Source of the DNA: Candidatus Saccharimonadota bacterium | GTDB lineage: Bacteria; Bacteroidota; Bacteroidia; Cytophagales; Amoebophilaceae | NCBI RefSeq assembly: GCF_964030745.1 | Contig: NZ_OZ034918.1 | Coordinates: 120,001-152,000, forward strand | Reading direction: 5' to 3' | DNA: 32,000 bases | Shown: positions 17,889 to 18,463 of the stretch, piece after piece | Layout: each line of letters starts with the position of its first letter | Numbering within the stretch: position 1 is the stretch's first letter | The notes under the pieces: model-generated | Database searches by the model: none | What the model was told of the DNA's origin: nothing | What the model saw: the letters and a program-made list of their open reading frames with translations, nothing else | Translations under genes and position numbers: made by a program

Positions 17889-17935
17889 CAAGAAATATAT
17901 TGCACTGATTCATCTGTTTCAATCACTGATTTAAC

Positions 17936-18408
17936 GTATCCATTCACGCCTGTGGCTGGGCCCCTTATCTCCTTCGATAAAAAGTCTGGCCCGATAGTAA
18001 ATAGCTGAATCGATATATTTTCAGCGGGAAAATCGTAAACTCAGCCCGCAAGCGGGCTTCAAACAGACGATTTTCTAATCCGCTGAAAATATATCGCTCA
18101 CCTGTTAGTGTTTTACTAGACCTCTTGCAAAACCTATTTCTAATGGCAATTTTGGTGTCGAAGCTTGTCTATGCTCCTCAAATACATTAAGTATTCTGCG
18201 GTACTCGACTACACTTCTCCTAAAAATTGCTCATCACAAAGTAGGTTTTGCAAGAGGTCTACTAGAGCGCCATTTTTTATCGAAGGAGACGCGGGACGGG
18301 TACTTGGTCAGCTATTTGCTTTTTCAGAAAAACGTAATCACAGTGATGAATGGATACTCACGAAAAGCTAGAAAAAACGTATTTTCTGCCACAGTGGTGA
18401 ATAGATGC
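17936..18408. mobile_element. family-L element, compact copy with an 8-bp target-site duplication, carrying a nested family-S MITE
   Basis: Termini are gtatccattcacg (17936-17948) and ggtgaatagatgc (ending 18408). A perfect 8-bp direct repeat GATTTAAC flanks it at 17928-17935 and 18409-18416. It contains the module-Y hairpin (cagcccgcaagcgggcttc). Confidence 0.85.
18118..18260. mobile_element. family-S MITE nested inside the family-L copy
   Basis: agacctcttgcaaaacctat ... ataggttttgcaagaggtct interrupts the L sequence ttttactagagcgcc, which is uninterrupted in reverse complement at 3645-3660. The flanking duplication is ACT (up to TACTA, depending on alignment). Confidence 0.85.
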
Positions 18409-18463
18409 GATTTAACATCTGAGTAGCCAATCGGAAGGGCATCTATCTTGTATCTATTCACCC

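Follow-up and report, generated by a model that had tools for sequence, protein, structure and literature searches.

Gene-less mobile elements (MITEs) have already been described in Cardinium. MITECca01 and MITECca02 of Cardinium cOegib are about 240 bp long, derive from ISCca4, a member of the IS982 family, and were reported to be unique to cOegib (Halter et al. 2022, PMC9769881). The same genome has one copy of ISCca16 (IS66 family) and nine copies of ISCca12 (IS110 family), none of them intact, and no MITE was linked to them (PMC9769881). ISDge4 of Deinococcus geothermalis, an experimentally active member of the ISBst12 group, has one ORF, termini that read GTAACTGCTCAGCA and an 8-bp direct repeat, and its transposition was reported to be of the copy-and-paste type (PMC12898284). 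IS66 is not mentioned in a 2024 review of prokaryotic MITEs (PMC10969869). In the searchable literature, we found neither a MITE attributed to the ISBst12 group nor a description of MITE termini of the GTATCTATTCACG type. Elements of the ISBst12 group have a single ORF, lack the accessory genes tnpA/tnpB and measure about 1.35-1.9 kb. The mechanism of their transposases has, to our knowledge, barely been studied.

The DNA analyzed here (the window) is a stretch of 32,000 nucleotides from the genome of an insect symbiont, probably a Cardinium. The genome is one contig of 1,093,165 bp with a G+C content of 39.1%, and the window spans its positions 120001-152000. The repeats flagged in it are real gene-less mobile elements, MITEs, each inserted with an 8-bp target duplication. 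They resemble MITECca01 and MITECca02 in being gene-less, multi-copy and IS-derived, in lying mostly in intergenic regions or within mobile DNA, and in their supposed dependence on an intact parental IS. They differ from them in their GTATCTATTCACG termini, their 8-bp duplications, their probable IS66-family parent and their modular make-up, with sizes from 249 to about 720 bp. While the MITECca elements were found only in cOegib, the present family is also found in the genomes of at least six further species representatives of Cardinium. The window differs from the ISBst12-group elements in that it carries only non-autonomous derivatives. The IS families of the genome agree with those listed for Cardinium (PMC9769881), and the IS66 and IS110 elements belong to the same families, in the same genus, as ISCca16 and ISCca12, a match at the level of family names. 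No description of the modular MITE family and its probable IS66-family parent was found in the searchable literature; otherwise, this is ordinary mobile DNA.

Two copies in the window are delimited by duplicated octamers. Their parts are as follows:

17928-17935, no strand: left target-site duplication of copy 1 (GATTTAAC), present once at five paralogous empty sites
17936-18408, plus strand: MITE copy 1, 473 bp, non-coding (no ORF of at least 80 aa); its left end is of the B type and its right end of the C type
18121-18266, no strand: nested palindromic element of about 146 bp between TACTAGA repeats, by which copy 1 has 139-146 extra bases with respect to the 511-bp element
18338-18357, minus strand: internal G-type terminus (GTATCCATTCATCACTGTGATT on the minus strand; 19.8 bits on the position weight matrix, PWM), relic of a fused simpler unit
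18409-18416, no strand: right target-site duplication of copy 1 (GATTTAAC)
21176-21183, no strand: left target-site duplication of copy 2 (TAAAAATG), within the 3' part of a decayed IS3-family element, with three paralogous empty sites
21184-23542, plus strand: MITE copy 2, 2359 bp, of which about 718 bp are composite MITE, with a left end of the B type and a right end of the A type, and the remainder is an IS110-family element nested in it
23294-23542, minus strand: right part of copy 2, which consists of a 249-bp A-F unit, the simplest member of the family
23543-23550, no strand: right target-site duplication of copy 2 (TAAAAATG)

An earlier note on this DNA had claimed that both copies are flanked by perfect 8-bp duplications. 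The coordinates of GATTTAAC and TAAAAATG were confirmed, and empty sites were found for both. The target of copy 1 is intact at five other loci (...CACTGATTTAACATCTGAG... / ...CTGTTTCAATCACTGATTTAACATCTGAGTAGCC...) and that of copy 2 at three (...CCATTTAAAAATGGTAGG... / ...CTTAACCATTTAAAAATGGTAGGCTAG...), with one octamer at each locus. Since the paralogous empty sites have a single octamer, both copies in the window were inserted with an 8-bp duplication. The terminal inverted repeats had been described as being of the GTATC(T/C)ATTCACG type, and this description held for the two copies. The ends of copy 1, GTATCCATTCACGCCTGTGG and GCATCTATTCACCACTGTGG (reverse-complemented), are alike at 16 of 20 positions, and those of copy 2, GTATCTATTCACGTATGTGG and GTATCTATTCACGTCACTGG, at 17 of 20, the first 14 being identical.

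The termini were then compared across the genome, where the 13-mer terminus occurs 186 times with two mismatches at most. A PWM was built from the 13-mer-type termini, and with a cut-off of at least 9 bits it identified 252 termini of the GTATCTATTCACG type. These termini gave 179 left/right pairs located 60-6000 bp apart. A perfect flanking repeat (8/8) was present in 35 of the 179 pairs and a 7/8 repeat in another six, while none of the 179 pairs had seven or more matches in controls with flanks shifted by 10, 14, 20 or 30 bp. The chance of an 8/8 match between two octamers is about 2e-5 per pair at 39% GC. These results indicated that the repeats are not coincidental and, together with the filled and empty paralogous sites, they bear out the core of the earlier note, namely that the elements are transposed non-autonomous units. 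The following features of a MITE are present: inverted termini, a duplication of fixed length, small size without a transposase gene of their own, and multiple copies with termini shared with an IS.

The family is large. In the genome, 46,158 bp (4.2%) are covered by a library of those members that bear duplications, and in the window 3,046 bp (about 10%). The elements are mostly intergenic and contain many long palindromes. Segments of the 511-bp element have between 44 and 102 matches each in the genome. Copies of the 249-bp unit share a median identity of 98%, reaching 100%, and those of the 511-bp element share 97.8-99.8% (median 98.9%). This high identity among copies points to a recent spread.

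Comparison of the members revealed a modular architecture. The simple units are the 249-bp A-F unit, of which 14 free copies with perfect 8-bp duplications were found elsewhere, and a G-B unit, which measures about 280 bp. Members of greater length (473, 511, 633, 657, about 718 and 972 bp) are fused, and their inner termini are decayed or lost. No ORF of at least 80 aa was found in the units of 249-511 bp. Copy 2 without its nested IS110 element is a composite of about 718 bp that resembles the free members of 633 and 657 bp. The 146-bp palindromic element has stand-alone copies at 388-534 and 7608-7689, and it is nested in copies 1 and 2, while the site of its insertion is uninterrupted in the 511-bp members. 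The remaining pieces of the family in the window are the following:

3328-4540, plus strand: head-to-tail array of one full 510-bp fused element and two units that start from element position 29, with an F-type terminus last
14732-14896, plus strand: 165-bp G-B unit with both termini present and without a flanking duplication
18450-18731, plus strand: related 'family T' element that has terminus GTATCTATTCACC in common, with a decayed right terminus that overlaps the ORF 18699-20036 (minus strand) at its 3' end
27777-28113, plus strand: left part of a 633-bp-type copy (element positions 7-340)
29992-30148, plus strand: right part of the same split 633-bp-type copy (element positions 343-499)

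The array at 3328-4540 has a period of 482 bp and is without a flanking duplication. The earlier note had listed six sites with copies or fragments, and the list needed amendment: 27773-28115 and 29991-30095 belong to a single copy that a group II intron has divided, an extra piece starts at 18450, and 14732-14896 is a complete G-B unit. It had also stated that neither copy has coding capacity. This is correct for copy 1 but not for copy 2, where an ORF at 21559-22902 encodes a 447-aa IS110-family transposase. These errors of observation, in the coding capacity of copy 2 and in the list of sites, leave the interpretation unaffected. The elements had further been called mosaics, and their make-up is indeed composite, but its origin lies in fused simpler MITEs and nested insertions. 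Any two inward-facing termini could be moved together and, therefore, simple units may have fused into composites, which would then have spread as units. The 146-bp palindromic element, the IS110-family element and the group II intron are later arrivals inside such composites.

Hairpins are prominent inside the elements, and two of them lodge other mobile DNA. The features concerned are:

18018-18089, plus strand: hairpin module H1, 72 nt, with a GCCCGC-AA-GCGGGC tip and 77 genome copies
21276-22916, plus strand: IS110-family element (about 1.64 kb; transposase ORF 21559-22902) whose insertion point, TTTTCAGC^GG, lies at the H1 hairpin base
28114-29991, minus strand: group II intron, 1878 bp, single copy in the genome (Rfam RF00029 and RF01999; RT/maturase TIGR04416, 404 bits)

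Two hairpin modules were analyzed, H1 (72 nt, 77 copies) and H2 (90 nt, 45 copies). In H1, the non-consensus frequency per site was 0.11 for the loop against 0.047 for the stems, and in both modules the loops of the GC stems exceeded the stems in variation. The three-base loop of H2 reads TGC in about 31 copies, TAC in six, TGT in four, TCC in two and TAA in one, the commonest variants being transitions. The claim of the earlier note that loops vary more than stems is thus valid genome-wide, except that two of the variants on which it was based, 'aag' and 'ttg', are one sequence on opposite strands. When the copies of H1 are oriented alike, 50 of the 77 read GCCCGCAAGCGGGC, and positions 3683-3754 of the window are 99% complementary to 18018-18089. 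The proposed constraint on the structure itself found support in compensatory double changes, which affect 12 stem pairs. For example, GCCCGC/GCGGGC changed to GCCCAC/GTGGGC in seven copies and to GCTCGC/GCGAGC in one. We counted 63 compensatory against 115 broken cells, and about 1-2 compensatory cells would be expected by chance, an estimate made from the per-site frequencies. The excess indicates that the palindromic symmetry is maintained. Two processes would yield this compensatory pattern, which does not distinguish between them: selection that acts on a hairpin of DNA or RNA, and correction of quasi-palindromes with the hairpin as template. A role of the hairpins as intrinsic terminators was discarded because no T run follows their GC stems. 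An Rfam scan of the window at the gathering threshold detected the group II intron only and no RNA family for the hairpin modules.

The 447-aa product of the ORF 21559-22902 has the Pfam domains DEDD_Tnp_IS110 and Transposase_20 and matches the NCBIfam model for IS110 family RNA-guided transposases (279 bits). The junction TTTTCAGC / IS / GG is common to three of the four genome copies of this element and lies at the base of the 72-nt hairpin, on either arm. The group II intron occupies the apical loop of a GCCCAC-TTT-GTGGGC hairpin, and the same hairpin is empty in the 633-bp element. The IS110 ORF was considered as the partner of the MITEs and discarded, since its element sits at a specific MITE site with junctions of its own, lacks the MITE termini, and has a core repeat of 2 bp at most.

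The partner transposase had been predicted to lie outside the window, which proved to be the case for the IS66 family: the only IS66-family transposase genes of the genome are at 35-37 kb, 261-263 kb and 845-847 kb, and the window spans 120-152 kb. They belong to three copies of a 1561-bp element that are 99.8-100% identical, with 8-bp duplications CATTTTTC, ATTTTTTG and TCGATAAA. The element has one ORF of 481 aa, the sole ORF of at least 80 aa in it, with the Pfam domains DDE_Tnp_IS66 (PF03050, 109.7 bits) and zf-IS66, and with a match to the NCBIfam IS66 family transposase model NF033517 (280 bits, cut-off 180). Its ends read GTAACGATTCAG.../GTATCCTTTCAG... (GTAACGATTCAGCGGTGTGG and GTATCCTTTCAGGGGTGTGG; GTAACG.../GTATCC...). 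The features of the ISBst12 group were all found in it: its single ORF has an IS66 DDE domain, tnpA/tnpB are absent, it measures about 1.5 kb, its inverted repeats are imperfect and begin with GTA, and it is flanked by direct repeats of 8 bp. In addition, GTAACTGCTCAGCA of ISDge4 resembles GTAACGATTCAGCG of Cardinium. One family member of 2079 bp turned out to be a 511-bp MITE split by the 1561-bp element, which generated a duplication of its own, CATTTTTC. The search for a transposase-bearing element with the same termini, suggested in the earlier note, led to an IS66-family element with related ends, but no element that joins the exact MITE termini to a transposase gene was found in the genome. 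Long terminus pairs were inspected as possible autonomous elements and discarded; they are MITEs with nested unrelated IS (IS110, IS5-type, IS982-type) or two distant termini.

The ends of the IS and of the MITEs are homologous. Of 20 positions, 16 agree between the IS right end, GTATCCTTTCAGGGGTGTGG, and the left end of copy 1, and 16 likewise agree between the two IS ends. Positions 1-3 (GTA), 5 (C), 8-11 (TTCA) and 16-20 (TGTGG) are common to IS and MITE ends. When the PWM was run over all 2.19 million positions of the genome, every site that scored above the IS right end (13.8 bits) was a MITE terminus. No other multi-copy IS terminus was among the top PWM positions, where the sole other multi-copy match (14 copies) lies inside an IS5 transposase ORF. 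The IS left end reached only 4.2 bits on the MITE PWM and is like the copy 1 end at 14 of 20 positions.

Relatives of the IS strengthen the connection. Its homologues in other Cardinium genomes share about 74% protein identity, and those in the representatives G003 and G012 have ends that read GTTTCCGTTCACGACTGTGGC. In G007, the IS66 right end, GTATGCGTTCAGAACTGTGGCAGAAAACACGTTTTTTTCT, shares 30 of 37 nt with the C-type end of copy 1, past the inverted-repeat core. In G012, a C-terminal IS66 remnant (...KQLQNIIA*) ends 23 bp from a terminus, GTATCTATTCACCACTGTGG, that is identical over 20 nt to the best-preserved, canonical C-type MITE termini of the genome analyzed here and differs from the right end of copy 1 by one base. 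A 62%-identical IS66 transposase was found in the Rickettsia endosymbiont of Polydrusus tereticollis (NZ_OZ032142.1), encoded by an element of 1451 bp with termini GTATCCATTCAG and an 8-bp duplication, ATACCTCC. The related IS66 elements of other Cardinium genomes and of this Rickettsia symbiont end in GTATCTATTCACC / GTATCCATTCAG. A search of the Rickettsia genome NZ_OZ032142.1 with the Cardinium MITE gave no match. Among 16 other Cardinium species representatives, the six that are rich in MITEs (G003, G006, G007, G010, G012 and G013) are the six with strong IS66 hits, a co-occurrence that is descriptive and not independent evidence because the genomes are kin.

Taken together, we consider it probable (roughly 75%) that the MITEs are moved in trans by an IS66-family transposase of the single-ORF ISBst12 type, its likeliest present source being the resident 1561-bp element. 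The DDE transposase would bind the terminal inverted repeats of about 20 bp, with the core GTA.C..TTCA....TGTGG, and the unit would be inserted at an AT-rich site by a staggered 8-bp cut, the repair of which would give the 8-bp duplication. The resident enzyme would be the one that moves the MITEs at present, presumably by the copy-and-paste mode. A different origin, in which an extinct IS66 lineage with exact GTATCTATTCAC termini spread the elements, the diverged resident IS cannot move them and the family is now a fossil, would account for the exact-terminus IS66 remnant that exists in the relative G012 and is absent from this genome, as well as for the 4-6 of 20 positions at which the resident IS ends differ from those of the MITEs. 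We regard it as unlikely. Identity reaches 100% between some MITE copies at different loci and is 98-99.8% within the 511-bp set, which argues for a recent spread, and the resident IS, with three identical copies, was recently active. Furthermore, its ends differ from each other as much as the right end differs from the MITE end; therefore, the transposase already tolerates such variation.

Two other explanations depart further from an IS66-type transposase. Transposases of the IS6, IS256, ISL3 or IS1595 types also produce 8-bp duplications, and IS6 and IS256 are common in Cardinium genomes (PMC9769881). However, the PWM scan of the genome revealed no other multi-copy IS terminus that resembles the MITE ends, and IS66-family ends from three independent lineages agree with the MITE ends in their GTA start, TTCA core and subterminal sequence, so that movement by one of these enzymes is very improbable. 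The family might instead be compared with the RPE and REP repeats, which it resembles as a set of hairpin-forming repeats in an intracellular symbiont; the 146-bp element may be such a repeat. The abundance of long palindromes and the mostly intergenic location of the elements would suit palindromes that owe their dispersal to recombination or to a Y1 (RAYT-type) enzyme, with the 8-bp repeats arising by coincidence. We know of no target duplication made by RAYT-type spread (IS200/IS605 family), and the single octamer at the empty sites and the 35 perfect duplications against none in the controls refute this interpretation, to which we give practically no credence. Because the units of the family (called Family-L) have both DDE-type inverted termini and a fixed 8-bp duplication, which are lacking in RPE and REP, they do not belong to those repeats.

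With trans-mobilization by the IS66-type transposase as the preferred explanation, a broader proposal can be formulated, although we hold it tentatively and judge it rather doubtful as a whole. The family may represent a MITE superfamily that arose from the single-ORF (ISBst12-type) branch of IS66, the first of its kind to be described. Its hairpins, with compensatory changes in 12 stem pairs, might be kept palindromic by selection and so act as preferred landing pads, as would be suggested by the RNA-guided IS110 element at the hairpin base, the 283-nt leader of which, at 21276-21558, has matches to the target and to its own ends, and by the group II intron in a loop. The parental IS type might be shared by the unrelated arthropod endosymbionts Cardinium and Rickettsia.

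The result changes no principle; it is solid and of annotation level. About 4% of this 1.09-Mb endosymbiont genome consists of the family, which standard annotation misses. With a probable parent IS that is intact and recently active, the MITE family would no longer be an orphan, and transposase and substrate form a pair that can be tested. That small hairpin-rich elements come to serve as safe landing sites for other mobile DNA is suggested by the IS110 element and the group II intron nested in them. Repeat-driven rearrangement and gene inactivation in Cardinium genomes may be explained in part by elements of this kind.

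The surroundings of MITE copies 1 and 2, two members of a family of gene-less elements with inverted termini and 8-bp target duplications, include the following features:

17914-17935 plus 18417-18449: repeat (CCTGTTTCAATCACTGATTTAACATCTGAGTAGCCAATCGG..., about 55-70 bp) in which MITE copy 1 is inserted
18450-18731: "family T", an element of a second type
20289-21170: remnant of an IS3-family transposase (NCBIfam, 168 bits, profile positions 1-268 of 369)

The repeat hosting MITE copy 1 has at least five further copies in the genome. Family T shares its starting terminus, GTATCTATTCACC, with the MITE family; CAATGGCGTCAACTTAAGG comes next, and about ten similar termini are present in the genome. 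The final codons of the ORF at 18699-20036 on the minus strand come from the decayed right end of family T. Compared to its other copies, the IS3-family remnant lacks about 294 bp directly upstream of where MITE copy 2 inserted.

MITE copy 2 carries a nested IS110-family element, which begins with a leader:

21276-21558: non-coding leader of the nested IS110 element, 283 nt

Within this leader, TATATTTTTCA at 21352 and TTTTTCAGC at 21419 each match exactly the sequence that flanks the insertion site on the left, and TATAACCCCGATTAGAAG, at about 21466, consists of the IS left end in reverse complement joined to the IS right end. Such an arrangement would be expected of a bridge-RNA carrying target and donor guides. 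The leader is missing from one of the four copies of the nested element in the genome. Another nested component, a palindromic element of about 146 bp, is found inside both MITE copies 1 and 2 and also occurs as stand-alone copies or fragments:

388-534 and 7608-7689: palindromic element of about 146 bp

The window also contains further features tied to the MITE family and a separate ORF:

3328-4540: the 510-bp fused MITE (a composite family member) arrayed head to tail, period 482 bp
28114-29991, minus strand: group II intron, present once in the genome
about 23400 and 4420-4435: examples of the loop of H2, a 90-nt hairpin module of the family
12471-14624, plus strand: ORF of 717 amino acids

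At the repeat junction of the array, the right terminus directly abuts position 29 of the fused element, and inspection of the array flanks revealed no flanking duplication. The group II intron lies precisely within the loop at the tip of a MITE hairpin, and another family member keeps the empty site, GCCCAC-TTT-GTGGGC. Genome-wide, changes in the three-base loop of H2 (GCCCGC/GCGGGC hairpin) are mostly transitions, TGC to TAC or TGT, which would fit deamination of loop bases exposed in extruded hairpins.

The 717-amino-acid ORF has a borderline Pfam match to the WH2 actin-binding motif (24.1 bits; cut-off, 23.1), and its coding DNA includes direct repeats rich in CCACCACC (13879-14206). Its product is possibly a host-cytoskeleton effector.

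An IS66-family element was also identified in another endosymbiont:

NZ_OZ032142.1 (Rickettsia endosymbiont of Polydrusus tereticollis), 1355-2805: IS66-family element

A search of this Rickettsia genome for the Cardinium MITE did not find it. The Rickettsia transposase is 62% identical to that of Cardinium, the host genome of the window, and the element has the ends GTATCCATTCAG and an 8-bp duplication, ATACCTCC. This suggests that unrelated arthropod endosymbionts exchange this IS type.
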